Positions 4,803 through 63,050 of a DNA stretch of 64,000 nucleotides are shown piece by piece. A model generated the notes under the pieces. The model ran no database searches and had not been told where the DNA came from. It was given only the letters and a program-made list of their open reading frames with translations. The translations under genes were made by a program, and so were the position numbers. How positions within the stretch are numbered: the stretch's first letter is position 1; the number at the start of each line of letters is the position of its first letter. Source of the DNA: an uncultured Pelagibacteraceae bacterium (GTDB lineage: Bacteria > Pseudomonadota > Alphaproteobacteria > Pelagibacterales > Pelagibacteraceae); assembly GCA_902570715.1 (NCBI GenBank), contig CACFZB010000001.1, positions 5,615 to 69,614 on the forward strand, in the 5' to 3' direction.

Positions 4803-5332
4803 TTGAAAGAAAGAAATTAACCCCGATAGTCTTAGCTGGTATTTTTGTTTTAATGCTAGGTTTGTCATACGCAGCAGTGCCTTTATATGATCTTTTTTGT
4901 AGAGTTACTGGTTTTGGAGGAACTACTCAAGTTTCGAACAATGTACCAAAGGTAGTTTTAGATAAAGTTGTAAGTGTCAGATTTGATACTAATGTAAATA
5001 ACTTACCATGGGATTTTAAAGCTAAATCAAATGTTATTGATGTAAAAGTTGGTCAAGTTAATAAAATAGAGTTTGAAGTATCAAATTACAGTGATGAGCC
5101 AACAGCCGGAGTGGCAAGTTTCAATGTTTCACCTGCCAGCTTTGGTAAATATTATAGTAAATTGGGATGTTTTTGTTTTGAAAAACAGGAATTAAAAGCT
5201 GGTGAAACAGCAACTTACGTAATGACTTTTTATTTAGACCCCGAAATGGTCAATGACCCTACCGTAAAAAACTTAGAAGATGTTACTATGTCGTATACTT
5301 TTTTCTCGACAGATTACTATAAACAATCATAA
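4799..5332 (+). CDS. ctaG: Cytochrome c oxidase assembly Cu chaperone Cox11/CtaG
   Basis: YAAVPLYDLFCRVTGFGG and CFCF copper motif. Confidence 0.95.
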   Translation: MIERKKLTPIVLAGIFVLMLGLSYAAVPLYDLFCRVTGFGGTTQVSNNVPKVVLDKVVSVRFDTNVNNLPWDFKAKSNVIDVKVGQVNKIEFEVSNYSDEPTAGVASFNVSPASFGKYYSKLGCFCFEKQELKAGETATYVMTFYLDPEMVNDPTVKNLEDVTMSYTFFSTDYYKQS

Positions 5333-5341
5333 TTCAAAAAA

Positions 5342-6130
5342 ATGTCAGCTGAAAAAAAACATGATTATCACCTTGTAGACCCAAGTCCTTGGCCAATCTA
5401 CACTTCTTTCTCATGCTTAGTTTTAGCTTTAGGTGCAGTTTATTATATGCATGCAGATGTATCATGGGGAATGTATTTAGGTTTAGCTCTATTAATTTAC
5501 GGAGCCTATATGTGGTTTAGAGATGTTGTGATTGAAGCTGAACATCAAGGACATCATACTCCAGTTGTTCAAATTCATCATCGTTATGGAATGACATTAT
5601 TCATTGCTTCAGAAGTAATGTTTTTCGTTGCATGGTTTTGGGCATATTTTGATGTGAGTCTTTTTCCAAACGAGTTTGTGGGAAATGTTTGGCCACCTAA
5701 AGATATTAAAACTTTTGATCCTTGGGATATTCCTTTAATCAATACACTTGTATTGCTGTTGTCAGGTACAACTGTAACTTGGTCTCATCATGCTCTTCTA
5801 GAAGATGATAGAAAAGGTTTCATTAATGGATTAATCTTGACTGTAATTCTTGGAGTTTGTTTCACAGCTCTCCAAGCTTACGAATACCATCACGCAACAT
5901 TTACATTTTCAAATCATATTTATGGCTCAGTATTTTATATGGCAACAGGATTTCATGGTTTTCACGTAATAGTAGGAACTATATTTTTAGCGGTTTGTTT
6001 ATGGCGTGGAAAATTAGGTCACTTTAATAAAGATCATCACTTTGGTTTTGAAGCTGCAGCTTGGTATTGGCATTTTGTTGATGTGGTTTGGTTGTTTTTA
6101 TTTGCTGCAATTTATATTTGGGGAAGTTAA
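5342..6130 (+). CDS. coxC: Cytochrome c oxidase subunit III
   Basis: HDYHLVDPSPWP, SEVMFF, ATGFHGFHV, WYWHFVDVVW. Confidence 0.97.
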   Translation: MSAEKKHDYHLVDPSPWPIYTSFSCLVLALGAVYYMHADVSWGMYLGLALLIYGAYMWFRDVVIEAEHQGHHTPVVQIHHRYGMTLFIASEVMFFVAWFWAYFDVSLFPNEFVGNVWPPKDIKTFDPWDIPLINTLVLLLSGTTVTWSHHALLEDDRKGFINGLILTVILGVCFTALQAYEYHHATFTFSNHIYGSVFYMATGFHGFHVIVGTIFLAVCLWRGKLGHFNKDHHFGFEAAAWYWHFVDVVWLFLFAAIYIWGS

Positions 6131-6138
6131 TTTGATCC

Positions 6139-6792
6139 TTGAAAAATAAGTTTTTATTTACAGTTTTTACATTTTTTTTTATCTCAGTTTTTATTGCATT
6201 GGGTTCATGGCAAATAATTCGTTTAAATTGGAAAAATAATCTTATTTTAGAAATTGAGGAGTCTCTTAAAAAACCACCTGTAGAGTTATCCAAATCTACT
6301 GTAGAAAATTACTTAAAGATCAAAACTTCAGGATCTATAGATTTTGAAAAACAAATTTACTTATATAATTTAAATGATAATGGTGTTCCTGGGTTTGAAG
6401 TTGTGAACCCTTTTTTTGTAGATGATAAAAATTACTTAATTAATAGAGGATGGATACCCTTTGAAAAAAAAGATACAGATAAAATTATTAAATTTGATGG
6501 TAAAAATATTGTTGGAACTTTAAAAAAACAGGGGAGAAAAAATATTTTCAAACCTGATAATGACCTAAAAAAGAACTATTGGTTCAGCTTAGATAGAAAA
6601 GATGTTTTAAGTTATACTGGCAAAGAGTTCTCTGAATATATAATTTATTTAAATGGCAATTATACTCTTCCAAAACCAAAAAAAATTACTGCTAATATTT
6701 CTAATAATCATAAAAAATATGCTATTACTTGGTTTTCATTAGCGATTTCAATTCTTTTGTTATATTTATATTTTAGAAAAAAGAATTATTAA
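6139..6792 (+). CDS. surf1: SURF1/Shy1 family oxidase assembly protein
   Basis: LGSWQIIRLNWK, INRGWIP, NNHKKYAITWF. Confidence 0.92.
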   Translation: MKNKFLFTVFTFFFISVFIALGSWQIIRLNWKNNLILEIEESLKKPPVELSKSTVENYLKIKTSGSIDFEKQIYLYNLNDNGVPGFEVVNPFFVDDKNYLINRGWIPFEKKDTDKIIKFDGKNIVGTLKKQGRKNIFKPDNDLKKNYWFSLDRKDVLSYTGKEFSEYIIYLNGNYTLPKPKKITANISNNHKKYAITWFSLAISILLLYLYFRKKNY

Positions 6793-23336: not shown

Positions 23337-24403
23337 TTATTAGAAATTAATCTTTGTCTTAAATTATCGATAGGAACCACTGTTCCATTTAAATTGTAGT
23401 GCCAAAAAGTCCAACCATTGCAGCTTTCAGCGCCTAAGATGGTTGCTGCCACTTTATGAATTGAGCCCTCAGTTTGATCGTGTTTAATGCTTCCATCAGC
23501 CATTATTTTTGCACTAATTTTTTTCTTATTATCAAAAATGGTAGCACCTGGTTTTATTATTCCTAATTCAACCAATGTACCAAAAGGTATTCTTGGTTTA
23601 GATCTACCATTCTGTAAAGTATCTAAATAATCATCTTCAATGGGTTTCGTTTTTTTTAATCTTTCTCCAGCAGCTTTAAAATAGTTTTTTTCCTTTTCAA
23701 TTCCATAATAATTTCTACCTAATTTTTTAGCAACAGTTGCAGTAGTTCCGGTCCCTAAAAAAGGATCTAAAATTAAATCATTTTTATTTGATGATGCTAA
23801 TAAAATTCTGTGAAGTAAAGCCTCAGGTTTTTGAGTGGAATGGACTTTTTTCCCATTCTTTTTTAGTCTCTCTGAACCATTGCAAATCGGCAATTCCCAG
23901 TTAGACCTCATTTGGAGGTCGTCATTCAAACACTTTAAAGATTGATAGTTAAAAGTGTATTTTGATTTTTGAGATTTTGAAGCCCAAATTAGAGTTTCAT
24001 GAGCGTTTGTAAAACGAGTTCCTCTAAAATTAGGCATGGGATTTTTTTTGTTCCAAATAACATCATTTAAAATCCAAAAACCTAAATTTTGAACTGCTGT
24101 TCCTACTCTAAAAATATTGTGATAACTACCAATTACCCAAATAGCTCCGTTTTTTTTTAAAATTCTTTTGCATTCGCTTAACCATGAGTAAGTAAAGTCA
24201 TCATACTTTTTAAAATTTTCAAATTGATCCCACTTATCGTCTACTGCACTAACTTTTGATCTATCTGGTCTAGTAAGCTCACTTTTAAGTTGTAGGTTGT
24301 AAGGAGGGTCTGCAAAAATTAAATCAAAAGTCTCATCAGGAATTTTTTTAAGTTCTTCTAAACTATCTCCGTTAACTATTTTATTTTTTAGGTTAAAATT
24401 CAT
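23333..24403 (-). CDS. ccrM: Cell-cycle regulated GANTC adenine methyltransferase CcrM
   Basis: FADPPYNLQL, PMPNFRGTRFTNAHET, HSTQKPE, DPFLGTGT, C-terminal SIHKVA..CNGWTFW domain; no cognate endonuclease nearby. Confidence 0.95.
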   Translation of the reverse strand: MNFNLKNKIVNGDSLEELKKIPDETFDLIFADPPYNLQLKSELTRPDRSKVSAVDDKWDQFENFKKYDDFTYSWLSECKRILKKNGAIWVIGSYHNIFRVGTAVQNLGFWILNDVIWNKKNPMPNFRGTRFTNAHETLIWASKSQKSKYTFNYQSLKCLNDDLQMRSNWELPICNGSERLKKNGKKVHSTQKPEALLHRILLASSNKNDLILDPFLGTGTTATVAKKLGRNYYGIEKEKNYFKAAGERLKKTKPIEDDYLDTLQNGRSKPRIPFGTLVELGIIKPGATIFDNKKKISAKIMADGSIKHDQTEGSIHKVAATILGAESCNGWTFWHYNLNGTVVPIDNLRQRLISNN

Positions 24404-24416
24404 TTTATAAAAACAA

Positions 24417-24445
24417 ATTAGACTCTAAAAAGATTCTTGGGTCAA
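24417..24445 (-). promoter_or_regulatory. Putative sigma70 promoter of ccrM containing two GANTC sites
   Basis: Minus strand TTGACC-N17-TCTAAT; GANTC at 24421-24425 and 24432-24436. Confidence 0.7.
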
Positions 24446-24493
24446 CTTGTGATTGAATTATTTAAATTCAATTTGTGTATTAGTTACTTTTGG

Positions 24494-28377: not shown

Positions 28378-28451
28378 TGGGGCGTAGCCAAGCGGTAAGG
28401 CACGGGTTTTTGGTACCTGCATCCTAGGTTCGAATCCTAGCGCCCCAGCCA
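28378..28451 (+). tRNA. tRNA-Gln (TTG)
   Basis: TGGGGCG/CGCCCCA acceptor (U1-A72), anticodon loop TTTTGGT, T-loop TTCGAAT, encoded CCA. Confidence 0.95.
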
Positions 28452-58124: not shown

Positions 58125-58586
58125 ATGGCACTTAAAGAAACAATCGAAACTGAATATAAAAATGCTTTAAAATCAAAAGATAAAAGCAAAATATCAACTT
58201 ATAGGTTAATTTTATCCTCAATTAAGGATTTGGATATATCAAATAGATCTGGCCCAAATAAAAAGGAAACAGACGATGATGATATTAAAAAACTTCTAAA
58301 AAAAATGGTAAAACAAAGAGCCGAATCAATTGATATTTACAAAAAAAATAACAGAACAGATCTTCTGGAAATTGAACAGAATGAATATGATATTTTAACT
58401 GGTTTTTTACCAAAACAGCTTGGTGAGGAAGAAACTAAAAAAATTTGTGCAGAACTGATTTCAAAACTTGGTGCAAATTCAGTTAAAGACATGGGAAAAG
58501 TAATGGGTGAATTAAAAAAACTGCATTCAGATGAAATTGATTTTGCAAAAGCAGGTTCTTTAATAAAAGAATTATTAAACAAGTGA
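58125..58586 (+). CDS. GatB/YqeY domain protein
   Basis: KMVKQRAESI, FLPKQL, KDMGKVMG; carA-yqeY-dnaG context. Confidence 0.92.
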   Translation: MALKETIETEYKNALKSKDKSKISTYRLILSSIKDLDISNRSGPNKKETDDDDIKKLLKKMVKQRAESIDIYKKNNRTDLLEIEQNEYDILTGFLPKQLGEEETKKICAELISKLGANSVKDMGKVMGELKKLHSDEIDFAKAGSLIKELLNK

Positions 58587-60361
58587 TGAAGTATCCTAAA
58601 GAATATCTTGATGAAATTAAAACAAGATTAAAAGTTTCAACAGTTGTATCAAAATCTGTTGCTCTAAAGAAAAGGGGAAAAGAATTTGTTGGTTTATCAC
58701 CATTTAAAAATGAGAAGACCCCATCTTTTACAGTTAATGATGAAAAAGAATTTTATCATTGTTTTGCAACATCAGAGCATGGAAACATTTTTGATTTTGT
58801 AATGAAAATTCAAAATCTTAAATTTGGTGAGGCAGTAAAACATTTAGCCCAATTAGCTGGGATGCAACCTTATATGTTCTCAAAACAAGATGAGGAAAGA
58901 GAAAAAAAGTGGAAAGAATACCAATCAATCTTTAGTCAATATGTAGATTTTTATCATAACGAATTGTTAAAAAATGAGAGTTGTTCTGTTGCTAGAGATT
59001 ATTTAAAAAATAGATCTATAACTAAAGAAGAGGTTAAAAAATTTAAAATTGGATATATACAAAAAAATCCAAATTTCTATGAAAAATTAAAAGATAATTA
59101 TAGTGAGCAAACTTTAACTGAAACTGGTTTGTTTTATTTGGATGAAAAAAAGAAAATATATGTTGAAAGATTTAGAGGGAGATTAATTTTTCCAATCAAT
59201 AACATTTCAGGTCAACCTATAGCACTAGGTGGAAGAATAATTGAAAATCTAGACTATTTAGCTAAATATATAAACTCACCTGAAACGAATTTTTTTAAAA
59301 AAGGATCCAATTTATATAATTTAGATGTAGCTAGAAAACTTTCTAACAAAATAGATCACATTTATTTAGTCGAGGGTTATATGGATGTAGTTGGTTTAAG
59401 TAAAAATGGTCTCGAAAATGCAGTTGCAAATCTTGGAACTTCTTTAACAGATAAACAAATTTTAACTCTTAACCAATTTTTTGATGATATCATTATTTGC
59501 TTTGATGGTGATGAAAGTGGTTATAAAGCAGCATTAAGAGCAGCAGAGAATTCTATTAAAGAATTAAAACCCGAAAAACAAATTTCTTTTTTATTTTTAC
59601 CAAACAAGGAAGATCCTGATAGCTATGTGAATAAAAATGGTAAAGCTAATTTTATTGAATTTACTAAACAAAGCAAGTTATCTATTCATAAATTTATTTT
59701 TAATCATTATAAAAAACAAACAGAAAACAATCCTTCCTCGTTAGCAATTTTTGAAAAAAAATTGAGAAGTATTGCAAACACAATTAAAGACAATTTTATA
59801 AAAAAATATGTATTAGAATATTTCTTAGAAAAAATCGCAGAATTAACACCTCATTCTAATCAAAATAAGAAAAAGTTTTTTGTTAAAAGAGCAAAATCAC
59901 TAGATACTACCAAGAAGCATTTTAATGATAGTCAATCACTGACTGGTGTAGAGCTTAAAGAATTCTCTTTATTATATTTAGCAATGAATAATTTAAATTT
60001 ATTACAAGCAAATATACATTTAATTGAAAATATTAAATTATTTACTGAAGTTAATAAAAAGATATTTGAACTAATAATTGAGAAGCTGAAAACTGGAGAG
60101 CAAATTACAATTGAAGATTTAAAGTTAGATAGTCAATTGTTAGAAAAAATAAACAAATTTGCACCCATCAAACATATTCTTAAAAATCAAGCTGATGATG
60201 ATCAAAAAACTATTGAGTTATTAGACGATATCTCAAGAGATCTGATGAATTATGATCTTGAGTTCAGAATCCAAGAATTAGAATCGAGGTTTTCAGTTGA
60301 CATGAGCGAGACCACATTTAATGAGCTAAAAGAGCTTAAAAAAAAGCAAAATATCAATTAA
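58586..60361 (+). CDS. dnaG: DNA primase
   Basis: EKTPSF, RFRGRLIFPI, KYINSPET, VEGYMDV, FDGDESG, DPD. Confidence 0.97.
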   Translation: MKYPKEYLDEIKTRLKVSTVVSKSVALKKRGKEFVGLSPFKNEKTPSFTVNDEKEFYHCFATSEHGNIFDFVMKIQNLKFGEAVKHLAQLAGMQPYMFSKQDEEREKKWKEYQSIFSQYVDFYHNELLKNESCSVARDYLKNRSITKEEVKKFKIGYIQKNPNFYEKLKDNYSEQTLTETGLFYLDEKKKIYVERFRGRLIFPINNISGQPIALGGRIIENLDYLAKYINSPETNFFKKGSNLYNLDVARKLSNKIDHIYLVEGYMDVVGLSKNGLENAVANLGTSLTDKQILTLNQFFDDIIICFDGDESGYKAALRAAENSIKELKPEKQISFLFLPNKEDPDSYVNKNGKANFIEFTKQSKLSIHKFIFNHYKKQTENNPSSLAIFEKKLRSIANTIKDNFIKKYVLEYFLEKIAELTPHSNQNKKKFFVKRAKSLDTTKKHFNDSQSLTGVELKEFSLLYLAMNNLNLLQANIHLIENIKLFTEVNKKIFELIIEKLKTGEQITIEDLKLDSQLLEKINKFAPIKHILKNQADDDQKTIELLDDISRDLMNYDLEFRIQELESRFSVDMSETTFNELKELKKKQNIN

Positions 60362-60427: not shown

Positions 60428-62254
60428 GTGGAAAGAATAATTACAAAATCGTTTGCTAGACTTATGGGTCGTGGAACCCATAGAGGTTTTATCACACACG
60501 AAGAATTGAGTAAATCTCTAGGAAAGAGAAATTTATCTGATGAGAATTTAGCACAGGCTTTTATTCATATCTTGGACGAAAATATAAGTTTAGTTGAAAA
60601 AAAATCTGATTTTAAAGTTTTGAGAAAAAAAGAAAACTCTTCAAAAGAGGAGGGAAAAACAATTGAGAAAAGCGATGATCCTATAAGAATGTATTTACGA
60701 GAAATGGGAGGTGTTGAATTACTTTCTAGAGAAGGAGAAATAGCAATTGCAAAAAGGATAGAGGCAGGAAAAGATGTAATGTTAATTGCGTTGTCGCAAA
60801 GTCCAATTACAGCTCAACAATTTTTTGAGTGGAATGATAAACTTCAAAAAGATGAAATTTTAGTTAGAGAGATTATAGATATAGATACAAATTATATGGA
60901 AGATGAAACTACGGGCCCAAGTGCAAAACAAAAAAACTCTGCAGATTTAGAAAAGGATGAAGAAAATTCAGGTGATGAGGATGATGATTTTAATCCTACA
61001 TTAGCTGCAATGGAATCTGAAATAAAACCAAAAGTTTTAAAAACTGTAAATCACTTAACAAAAGAATATAATAAGCTTATAAAATATCAAAAAGATAAAT
61101 TAAACTGTATTTTAAATTCACAAATTTTTTCCCCAGCAAAGGAAAAAACTTATGAAAAACTCGTTAATGATATATTGGAAAATATAAAATCTCTACAGTT
61201 ATCTCCATCAGTTTTAGAGGAGTTGGTGCAAAAGCATTATGTAGAAAATAAAAAAGTAATTTCATTAGAAGGTAATCTTTTAAGGCTAGCGATAGACCAC
61301 AAAATTCCAAGAAATGAGTTTATTAAATTTTATGTTGGTAATGAGATTAATCCTAATCTAAAAAAATTTTTGGACACCAACACTTTATGGAAGCAATTTT
61401 TTGCAAAAAATAAAGAGCAATTTAAAAATATCAAAGAAAGATTAATTGAGATTAGTCATAAACTTGGAATTTCAGTAACTGATTATAAAAAAATTGTAAG
61501 TAGAATTCAAAAAGGTGAAAAAGAGTCAAGAATTGCAAAAAAAGAGATGGTTGAAGCTAACTTAAGGTTAGTAATATCAATTGCAAAAAAATATACTAAT
61601 AGAGGTCTTCAGTTTCTTGATTTGATTCAAGAGGGTAATATTGGTTTAATGAAAGCAGTAGATAAATTTGAGTATAGAAGAGGCTACAAATTTTCAACTT
61701 ATGCAACATGGTGGATTAGACAAGCAATAACTAGATCTATCGCTGATCAAGCAAGAACAATTAGAATCCCTGTACACATGATTGAGACAATAAATAAAAT
61801 AGTAAGAACTCAAAGGTTAATACTTAGTGAATTTGGAAGGGAGGCAACACCTGAGGAACTGGCAAAGAAATTAAGAATGCCTTTAGATAAAGTAAGAAAA
61901 GTTTTAAAAATTTCTAAAGAGCCTGTTTCTTTAGAGAAACCAGTTGGGGATGAAGAAGATAGTAGTTTAGGAGATTTTATAGAAGATACTAAAGCTTTGG
62001 CTCCTTTAGAGCAAGCGATAAAATCTAATTTAGGAGAGGCAACCACAAAAATTCTATCGACCTTAACTCCTAGAGAGGAGAGAGTGTTGAGAATGAGATT
62101 TGGGGTTGGGATGAATACTGACCATACCCTAGAAGAAGTTGGATTACAATTTTCGGTTACAAGAGAAAGAATAAGACAAATTGAAGCTAAAGCTTTAAGA
62201 AAATTAAAACACCCTAGCAGATCAAAACAATTAAAAAGTTTCTTAGAAAGTTAA
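60428..62254 (+). CDS. rpoD: RNA polymerase primary sigma factor
   Basis: [53 protein letters not shown]; GTG start. Confidence 0.98.
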
Positions 62255-62269
62255 TAGAAAATCTTATTA

Positions 62270-62344
62270 GGGCCGTTAGCTCAATAGTAGAGTACTGCAT
62301 TGACATTGCAGGGGTAGTTGGAGCGTAACCAACACGGCCCACCA
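62270..62344 (+). tRNA. tRNA-Val (GAC), atypical D- and T-loops
   Basis: GGGCCGT/ACGGCCC acceptor, CTGCA-TTGACAT-TGCAG anticodon arm, GTTGG-AGCGTAA-CCAAC T arm, A73, encoded CCA. Confidence 0.85.
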
Positions 62345-62368
62345 ACTATTGAACTAATTTATAATCCA

Positions 62369-62397
62369 TTGAATTATTATTTATTAAAAGCTATAAA
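62369..62397 (+). promoter_or_regulatory. Putative sigma70 promoter of the methyltransferase-glycosyltransferase genes
   Basis: TTGAAT-N17-TATAAA ending 8 nt before ATG 62406; weak evidence in AT-rich DNA. Confidence 0.4.
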
Positions 62398-62405
62398 TAT
62401 TTGAG

Positions 62406-63050
62406 ATGTCTTTGCAAAGCTTTTTTGAAAAAAAATTTAAAAAAAATAGAGATTTAGTGAAAAAGATTAAAACCTTTACAATGAAATTTGGTTTTAATCT
62501 TGAATATTGGCATAGACACGTATCTTATAAAAATATTAAAGAGGATATTGGTTTCTTGGATTTTAAAAATCTAGACGTTCTAGAAATTTCCGCAGGTGAG
62601 TATTGGAAAAATAATTTTAAATTTAAAACTTACAATACGATGAATTTTCCCGAATATGATATTTGTAAAGAAATTAATATTGAAAAAAAATATGATTTAA
62701 TAATTGCTGATAATGTATGGGAACATTTAAAATATCCCTATCGAGCAACAAAAAATGTAATTAAAATGTTAAAAGATAACGGTTATTTTTTAATTATTAC
62801 CCCTTTTCTCGTGCGTGTGCATAATGTTCCTATAGACTGTAGTAGATGGACAGAGGATGGTCTTAAATATCTTTTAAACGAATGCGGATTTTCTTTAGAA
62901 AATATAAAAACAAATTCTTGGGGTAATAAAAAATGTGTAACTGCTGATTTAAGATTAGACGGCTCTTATACTAGATATGGTTTTTTCAGAGATAACAAAA
63001 ATAACAAATTATTTCCAATGCAAGTTTGGGCTATTGCTAAACTAAATTAG
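62406..63050 (+). CDS. Class I SAM-dependent methyltransferase (type-11-like, polysaccharide-cluster type)
   Basis: DVLEISAG, YDLIIADNVWEHL, LKDNGYFLIITPF..VH..PIDCSRW. Confidence 0.8.
   Translation: MSLQSFFEKKFKKNRDLVKKIKTFTMKFGFNLEYWHRHVSYKNIKEDIGFLDFKNLDVLEISAGEYWKNNFKFKTYNTMNFPEYDICKEINIEKKYDLIIADNVWEHLKYPYRATKNVIKMLKDNGYFLIITPFLVRVHNVPIDCSRWTEDGLKYLLNECGFSLENIKTNSWGNKKCVTADLRLDGSYTRYGFFRDNKNNKLFPMQVWAIAKLN

Follow-up and report, generated by a model that had tools for sequence, protein, structure and literature searches.

The non-proteinogenic tRNA-Gly species of staphylococci are redundant, special-purpose copies that lack the G18 G19 and T-Psi-C hallmarks of a canonical tRNA elbow. 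Metazoan mitochondrial tRNAs also have degenerate elbows without G18 G19 or T-Psi-C, and co-evolved, reduced partner machinery (PMC4810234). In the canonical elbow, G18 is stacked between positions 57 and 58 and bonded to pseudouridine 55 (Psi55), which has been termed universally conserved, whilst the G19:C56 pair forms an exposed platform for the ribosome, RNase P and processing enzymes (PMC4810234). G18, U54 and A58 are likewise treated as hallmarks of tRNAs (PMC7912444), and the accounts of the elbow and T-loop in these two sources cover the canonical set plus the eukaryotic initiator only. T-loops outside tRNAs are typically of the form YGNRA, with an intercalating adenosine bonded to the second-position G along its sugar edge; loops closed by C-A, and one in rRNA with the sequence GGAAG, have also been described (bioRxiv 10.1101/2022.12.26.521914). 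Here we analyse a gene for tRNA-Val(GAC) with an alternative elbow, found in a 64,000 nt stretch of DNA ('the window'; positions 5,615 to 69,614 of contig CACFZB010000001.1, assembly GCA_902570715.1) from an uncultured Pelagibacteraceae bacterium of the SAR11 clade. The source genome assembly is 643 kb in 47 contigs, with a G+C content of 28.6% and an estimated completeness of 55%.

The gene, which is called by ARAGORN, very probably encodes a working elongator tRNA-Val(GAC) with a discrete alternative elbow that is not damaged; from comparative sequence evidence we put the probability of this reading at about 0.85. It scores 53.6 bits against Rfam RF00005, above the gathering score of 29. Folding by minimum free energy gives the cloverleaf, at -28.6 kcal/mol with z = -3.29 and a 69% share of the ensemble, with all 21 stem pairs formed in four perfect stems, a seven nucleotide anticodon loop with U33 and a purine at position 37, and a discriminator A73 followed by an encoded CCA. 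The valine identity features A35, C36, A73 and G45 are all there; in E. coli, the identity elements recognised by valyl-tRNA synthetase (ValRS) are A35 and C36 of the anticodon, plus A73. The elbow is a different matter. In place of G18 with U55 or Psi55, a U54-A58 pair, a pyrimidine at position 60 and a purine 15 opposite a pyrimidine 48, the gene has A18, G55, A54, U58, A60 and A15:A48, so that the near-universal G18 is replaced whilst G19, and with it the outer tertiary pair G19:C56, is retained. Direct inspection of the sequence bore out each of the loop bases listed in the sequence-only reading. The other tRNAs found by ARAGORN in the source genome have UUC at positions 54-56 and GG in the D-loop.

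A comparison with canonical equivalents makes the extent of the change clear. In the sister family f2, tRNA-Val(GAC) (loci L059-L069) has the D-loop AGUGGUA and the T-loop UUCGAUC, and shares with the gene studied here the cloverleaf, the UUGACAU anticodon loop, A73, the encoded CCA, a five nucleotide variable loop starting GGGU and an identical GUUGG/CCAAC T-stem; the decoding task is presumably also the same. Further examples of this canonical elongator type are the Val(GAC) tRNAs of E. coli. Relative to such tRNAs, the gene has A18, A54, G55, U58, A60, A15:A48 and a seven nucleotide D-loop, and modification of U54 or U55 is impossible since neither base is there. Identical loops are found in the SAR11 tRNA-His and tRNA-Thr genes and the phage tRNAs described below, whilst tRNA-Phe, and the tRNA-Thr of the closed relative G013, share A18 and G55 alone. 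These alternative-elbow tRNAs differ from the valine gene in identity and stems, and mostly have a four nucleotide variable loop and A15 opposite C48, whereas here the variable loop is of five nucleotides and position 48 is A. The eukaryotic initiator tRNA-Met, an accepted functional alternative, shares A54 and A60 but keeps U55 or Psi55, a methylated A58, G18 and the anticodon CAU (PMC7912444 and general background), where this gene has G55, U58, A18 and GAC, such that it does not have a T-loop of the initiator type.

Table 1. Positions and characteristics of the features discussed. Coordinates are those of the window unless another contig is given.
Feature	Location	Strand	Details
tRNA-Val(GAC) gene	62270..62344	+	75 nt, CCA encoded; ARAGORN call, Rfam
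Acceptor stem	62270-62276 with 62334-62340	+	from sequence
D-stem		+	GCUC/GAGU; from sequence
D-loop	62283..62289	+	AAUAGUA: A14 A15 U16 A18 G19 U20 A21, 7 nt
Anticodon	62302..62304	+	GAC in loop UUGACAU, U33, A37; from sequence and ARAGORN
Variable loop	62312..62316	+	GGGUA, A48 opposite A15
T-arm	62317..62333	+	stem GUUGG/CCAAC
T-loop	62322-62328	+	AGCGUAA: A54 G55 C56 G57 U58 A59 A60
dnaG	58583-60361		upstream of rpoD
rpoD (sigma-70)	60428..62254	+	Pfam Sigma70 regions 1.1-4; stop 15 nt before tRNA
Methyltransferase	62406-63050	+	Pfam; first gene of slot after tRNA
GT1 glycosyltransferase	63061 to window end (63999)	+	Pfam
tRNA-His(GUG), source genome	contig C12 (L089), 5322-5395	+	same AAUAGUA and AGCGUAA loops; Rfam 50.2 bits
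tRNA-Thr(GGU) and tRNA-Phe(GAA), source genome	contig C12, 497-570 and 4671-4746	- and +	AT-rich, canonical elbows
tRNA-Thr(GGU) and tRNA-Phe(GAA), G013	C1, 1127218-1127289 and 1131481-1131553		G+C-richer, A18/G55
Val-Met spacer, source genome	extends to window end		methyltransferase and GT1 glycosyltransferase
Val-Met spacer, G025	62 bp		no gene
Val-Met spacer, G013	0.9 kb		single open reading frame (ORF) without Pfam match
Val-Met spacer, G029	2.1 kb		AT3-SGNH acyltransferase
Val-Met spacer, G017	3.5 kb		four deoxythymidine diphosphate (dTDP)-sugar rml-type genes: RmlD-like reductase, dTDP-4-dehydrorhamnose 3,5-epimerase, nucleotidyl transferase, sugar 4,6-dehydratase
Val-Met spacer, G002	3.5 kb		nucleoside diphosphate (NDP)-hexose 2,3-dehydratase, C-methyltransferase, oxidoreductase

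The gene is under selection within the genus. An identical 75-mer is present in 23 of 36 sampled species, and the combined D-loop and T-loop pattern was detected in 116 of 151 genus genomes (24 of the 27 that were at least 90% complete), whilst a reversed control pattern gave two matches. A covariance model of our own, R1, built on the gene, scored at least 95 bits in approximately 97 of 101 genus genomes at least 94% complete, a tally that takes in one unpublished genome (G229) on which no conclusion depends. Six distinct variants were found within the genus, with pairing at 100% of stem positions and double, compensatory changes at ten of the 21 stem pairs, a number equalled in none of 500 shuffles. 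Across these six, no change is seen in the anticodon loop, the variable loop or the T-loop, and the AAUAGUA D-loop is kept in five, the variant of G024 having an A at position 20; the T-stem alone includes two pairs with compensatory changes, around a constant T-loop. The Rfam score lies below those of most other tRNAs in the genome (57.6-71.9 bits), as might be expected of a pseudogene or of a mistake in assembly or sequencing; the sequence-only reading had allowed for a pseudogene and for a sequencing error. However, the stems are not broken and the loops do not vary freely or at random among relatives, and the same sequence recurs in dozens of independent assemblies, closed genomes included; with the compensatory stem changes, this makes such an explanation so improbable that we count it as refuted. 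What the earlier reading had taken for coordinated change rather than decay is upheld by the constancy of the loops while the stems co-vary, by the covariation of positions 18 and 55 in hundreds of tRNAs described below and by the retention of G19:C56.

The closed genome of G013 has 32 tRNAs, 29 of which have UUC at positions 54-56 and GG in the D-loop, and in this genome valine is served by a single Val(GAC) and by Val(UAC) alone. In long ORFs of the source genome, GUU and GUC account for 51.7% and 6.6% of valine codons respectively, 58% together and 3% of all codons. Taken with the conservation of the gene and the compensatory changes, its position as the sole GAC isoacceptor and this codon share point far more strongly to a working elongator tRNA than to any other reading. 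It would be charged by ValRS and decode GUC and GUU on the ribosome, and we infer its expression, its charging and the exact three-dimensional contacts of its elbow. An alternative is that it is a specialised tRNA used away from the ribosome, in cell wall or aminoacyl-transfer chemistry or in regulation, in the manner of the staphylococcal non-proteinogenic glycine tRNAs; genes for surface glycans adjoin it, and its elbow is unusual, as theirs are. Such tRNAs are spare copies, whereas here no redundant canonical copy exists amongst the 32 tRNAs of the closed genome, GUU and GUC make up most valine codons, the T-stem equals that of a canonical tRNA-Val, and the neighbouring genes change between species. 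We therefore consider such a role, proposed in outline by the sequence-only reading, to be highly unlikely. The gene also differs from both the staphylococcal and the mitochondrial cases in keeping G19:C56, in being a sole isoacceptor and in residing in a free-living cell alongside approximately 29 canonical tRNAs.

The alternative elbow follows rules that can be read from other tRNAs. In G013, the tRNAs with G55 are Val(GAC), Thr(GGU) (T-loop UGCAAGU) and Phe(GAA) (T-loop UGCGAAU), and exactly these three carry AG in the D-loop. A larger sample came from 80 IMG/VR viral loci, in which our own cloverleaf finder detected 483 distinct class I tRNAs, 432 of which remained once those selected by pattern were excluded. 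Amongst these 432, tRNAs with G55 C56 have AG in the D-loop in 112 cases and GG in six, those with U55 C56 have GG in 273 and AG in one, and those with U55 U56 have GA in nine of 11; this correspondence independently supports the A18/G19 register assigned to the valine gene. The 54:58 pair is U:A in 324, A:U in 52, G:G in 30, C:A in 11 and A:A in seven. At position 60, A is found in 43 of the 52 A:U loops and 29 of the 30 G:G loops, but mostly U in U:A loops, whilst positions 19 and 56 co-vary as G:C or A:U. Hence the contacts 18:55, 19:56 and 54:58, the last with position 60, each co-vary. The same arrays (L218-L297) hold further classes of elbow, with 54:58 as G:G (GGCAG, GGCGG) or C:A (CGCAA), with A54-U58 combined with U55 and an ordinary GG D-loop (AUCGU), or with G19:C56 swapped for A19:U56 (T-loop UUUGA, D-loop GA). 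A48 also occurs in G154, whose allele has a canonical elbow, and so does not belong to the alternative elbow alone.

These rules suggest how the elbow might be built. A18 would stack into the T-loop in place of G18, contacting G55 rather than Psi55, in the arrangement of the UGNRA-type T-loops of riboswitches and rRNA, whilst the outer G19:C56 pair would be retained as the stacking platform for the ribosome, RNase P and processing enzymes. The closing pair of the T-loop would be reversed from U54-A58 to A54-U58, with A60 accompanying the change, and A15 opposite A48 would complete the elbow. The likeness to the UGNRA and YGNRA T-loops of flavin mononucleotide and cobalamin riboswitches and of rRNA (bioRxiv 10.1101/2022.12.26.521914) lies in G55, G57 and the candidate intercalating A18: the sequence has the position 2 G, the position 4 purine and a partner adenosine, but not the pyrimidine 1 and A 5 pair, having A54 and U58 instead. 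Those loops, which are not tRNAs, close with U-A or C-A, whereas here the closing pair is A-U and position 3 is engaged in the tRNA-specific G19:C56. Given the anatomy of YGNRA loops, the A18/G55 contact would be a riboswitch and rRNA solution set into a tRNA.

The pair of loops seen in the valine gene, hereafter the module, recurs in tRNAs of other identities. In the source genome it is found in a tRNA-His(GUG) with G1-U72, A73 and no G-1, located approximately 5 nt upstream of a hisS-like ORF; this alternative-elbow gene is present in around 25 of 151 genus genomes, and the syntenic tRNA-His of G013 is canonical. Similarly, at a syntenic site after infA, Phe(GAA) has G55 in G013 and is canonical in the source genome. 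Hence the type of elbow varies among orthologous tRNA genes within the genus. An identical 14 nt loop pair is found in Thr(GGU) of f2 (D-loop AAUAGUA, T-loop GG-AGCGUAA-CC) and in Thr(GGU) of another alphaproteobacterial family, and, among the matches listed, in Ile(GAU) of an unclassified metagenome-assembled genome (MAG; L099), in Asp(GUC) of a Verrucomicrobiia MAG (L154) and in Gly(UCC) on a 682 bp scaffold of an actinobacterial assembly, Herbiconiux daphne (L134), which may represent contamination or phage DNA. A set of 200 genomes of Alphaproteobacteria, in which each family was represented by one or two, yielded just three real cases of the module outside SAR11. In the 80 viral loci, by contrast, it occurs in at least 65 distinct tRNAs, nearly all with 19-21 of 21 stem pairs, of the isotypes Lys, Gln, Asp, Gly, Met, Ile, His, Val, Thr, Asn, Trp, Glu and Pro, with one CUA (amber) suppressor at L266; a pattern scan of viral contigs identified at least 120 stretches with the module. 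The alternative elbow is thus concentrated in SAR11 among cells and common among phages. ARAGORN finds tRNA-Val(GAC) but overlooks His(GUG) of the source genome and Thr(GGU) of f2, and was dropped as a census tool for this reason; the census relied instead on Rfam, the R1 model, searches with sequence patterns and our cloverleaf finder.

Such a distribution raises the question of whether the gene, or its two loops, could have been imported from a phage tRNA, displacing a native Val(GAC). The locus itself is informative. In 22 relatives rpoD lies upstream of tRNA-Val(GAC), whilst in genera g5, g6, g8 and g9 and in f2 (L399-L403) rpoD is followed directly by tRNA-Met(CAU); given this adjacency in five outgroups, the presence of tRNA-Val between the two is a trait of this genus alone. 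The f2 Val(GAC), which is canonical, does not adjoin rpoD; in the family's remaining genera Val(GAC) is again canonical, but its backbone is not that of the gene studied here and it maps to another part of the genome. An origin of the elbow in place from a canonical Val(GAC) of the f2 type was considered and is weakened by these two observations, namely that the f2 gene is not next to rpoD and that outgroup rpoD abuts tRNA-Met. The genus-specific position, the unlike backbone and the identity of the loop pair with that of many phage tRNAs are what would be expected of an import, as is a patchy distribution outside the genus (G176, G268, G255, G293). In g5, g7 and g8, single genomes carry the gene with the alternative elbow, or a near relation of it in which the loops are AAAAGUA and AGCGUUA. 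However, the two phage Val(GAC) tRNAs that were found have other stems and four nucleotide variable loops, the T-stem, D-stem and start of the variable loop are common to the canonical f2 Val(GAC), and searches with blastn of both the valine gene and a phage tRNA-Lys with the same elbow against 50,697 GenBank phage records returned no match.

The whole backbone is moreover common to two canonical alleles, found at the same rpoD-Val-Met locus in G154 and G238. These have a canonical elbow on the same acceptor, D and anticodon stems, with the variable loop GGGUA (GGGCA in G238), the D-loops ACUGGUUA and ACCGGUUA and the T-loops UUCGAUU and UUCAAUU. On a 717 nt rpoD tree, drawn without support values, G154 and G238 fall at two separate nested positions, which fit recombination as well as reversion. 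On balance we regard an import from phage as quite unlikely.

The sequence-only reading had also suggested that the tRNA would escape modification of T54 and Psi55. This is trivially true, there being no U at either position, yet it is moot, the modifying genes not having been found in the genus. TruB (PF01509), the Psi55 synthase, was detected in none of the 81 genus genomes at least 90% complete and in none of the 19 genomes from the neighbouring genera g8-g12, whilst it is present in 20 of 20 genomes of g5-g7 (the g6 tally takes in one unpublished genome, G296, on which no conclusion depends), 21 of 24 of f2 and 14 of 14 controls. With an f2 TruB protein as the query there was no significant match in five high-quality genus genomes, the best being a hit in one genome at E = 0.004 and 16.9 bits, and neither the TrmA family (PF05958) nor TrmFO (TIGR00137) was found above cut-off in G013, G000 and G037. 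Hence tRNAs with Psi55 or 5-methyluridine 54 (m5U54) are unlikely in this genus. We found no published report of the absence of TruB from it.

These absences would suit an explanation in which the elbow compensates for lost T-loop modification: an unmodified U55-G18 contact would be weaker, and A18-G55 would be selected in its place. This is compatible with a working elongator, and is further favoured by Phe(GAA) with A18 and G55, seen solely in the TruB-less genera g1, g8 and g9. Against it, TruB was lost in a single evolutionary event, which leaves a sample of n = 1 for the correlation; U55 and G18 are retained by most of the tRNAs in the genus; two TruB-less species keep a canonical Val(GAC); and the same module occurs in phages of many hosts. 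Furthermore, the module is found in lineages that keep TruB, in full in Thr(GGU) of f2 and in Val of G176, G268 and G293. The link between the elbow and missing T-loop modification is consequently loose at most, a strict tie between the elbow and TruB loss is rejected, and compensation strikes us as unlikely. Our leading guess is that the elbow is a near-neutral or mildly favoured alternative, independent of T-loop modification.

The occurrence of the module in these TruB-bearing lineages is one of several points that weigh against the interpretation favoured here. Each IMG/VR locus was picked for containing at least one tRNA with an alternative elbow, that tRNA itself being left out of the counts, and Fisher's test of G55 C56 against U55 C56 by D-loop class, with a p value of approximately 1e-89, ignores kinship among the tRNAs. 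No published precedent for the A54-U58 geometry was found, the published T-loops at this pair being U-A, C-A, A-A and G-G. Finally, a Val(UAC) whose U34 is unmodified, or bears a suitable modification, might decode the whole GUN box, so that Val(GAC) need not be indispensable.

The surroundings of the gene are of interest in their own right. No promoter-like or terminator-like site was found between rpoD and the next gene (62100-62500), and from this arrangement tRNA-Val(GAC) is probably co-transcribed with dnaG and rpoD. On its other side, the spacer between tRNA-Val and tRNA-Met(CAU) is hypervariable, ranging from 62 bp to 3.5 kb in relatives (L340-L344), with sugar and surface glycan genes that vary by species; the methyltransferase and GT1 pair is limited to the source genome among 30 related loci. 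The position of the tRNA at an island border, noted when it was first described, is accordingly well founded, the border being that of a slot of sugar and surface genes. No integrase gene or nuclease was found at the tRNA-Val locus, nor were any att-like (attachment site) repeats of the tRNA (k = 12-14) found on contig C1 and 2-20 kb downstream in five relatives. Turnover of the slot by homologous recombination between conserved flanks would be the simplest reading.

It could be supposed from this position that the elbow is an adaptive escape from recognition of the T-loop or 3' half of the tRNA, whether by T-loop-cleaving toxins, by phage or host tRNA nucleases or by integrases. Phage tRNAs are known to alter their anticodon loops to evade host nucleases, and contact-dependent inhibition (CDI) toxins that cleave the T-loop exist; the frequency of the module in viral sequences and the location of the gene beside a hypervariable slot are both in keeping with the idea. 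However, besides the negative results at the locus for nucleases, integrases and att-like repeats, the slot is still variable next to the altered tRNA, such that insertion or exchange is not prevented. Only two to four of approximately 32 tRNAs per genome are altered, which would give little protection against a general T-loop nuclease, and cultured phage genomes hold no match to tRNA-Val(GAC). Evasion of phage or integrase recognition, which had been floated in the sequence-only reading, is therefore not borne out, and escape of any of these kinds appears unlikely.

Other RNA genes were observed in the course of this work. Contig C15 of the source genome has, on the minus strand, a full tRNA-Met(CAU) gene and a partly diverged copy of it, at 1156-1232 and 6626-6698, 5.4 kb apart. 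The copy is identical in its 5' part and diverged in the T-arm and 3' end, scoring 35.5 bits against Rfam, and might be what is left from the insertion of an element at a tRNA gene. The window also includes a bablM small RNA (24400-24469, minus strand, 76.8 bits), in keeping with Pelagibacter as the source, and a canonical tRNA-Gln(UUG) (28378-28451, plus strand).

We found no published description of an elbow with A18, G55, A54 and U58, a negative that is not proof of novelty given the thin coverage of subscription journals. Tentatively, and at something short of even odds, these tRNAs may represent a second, rule-governed elbow architecture, in which G55 with an intercalating A18, and positions 54-58 as A-U, G-G or C-A with A60, would be combined with a retained G19:C56. 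It would occur in essential elongators of SAR11 and in a large share of the tRNAs of uncultivated phages, might be favoured for working without Psi55 and m5U54 or for resisting factors that act on canonical T-loops, and would be partly missed by standard finders.

The failure of ARAGORN to detect the His and Thr members marks a blind spot in annotation. The canonical and alternative elbows at the valine locus, on the same backbone, provide matched natural alleles suited to biochemistry. The gene also offers a natural test of the requirements of the elbow, which would be a stacked contact of 18 with 55 alongside the G19:C56 platform, rather than particular bases. The failure to find TruB in an entire clade within SAR11 bears on how far streamlined cells can strip tRNA modification. 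The sole GAC valine tRNA of a very abundant free-living marine bacterium is without four hallmark bases, yet is clearly selected.

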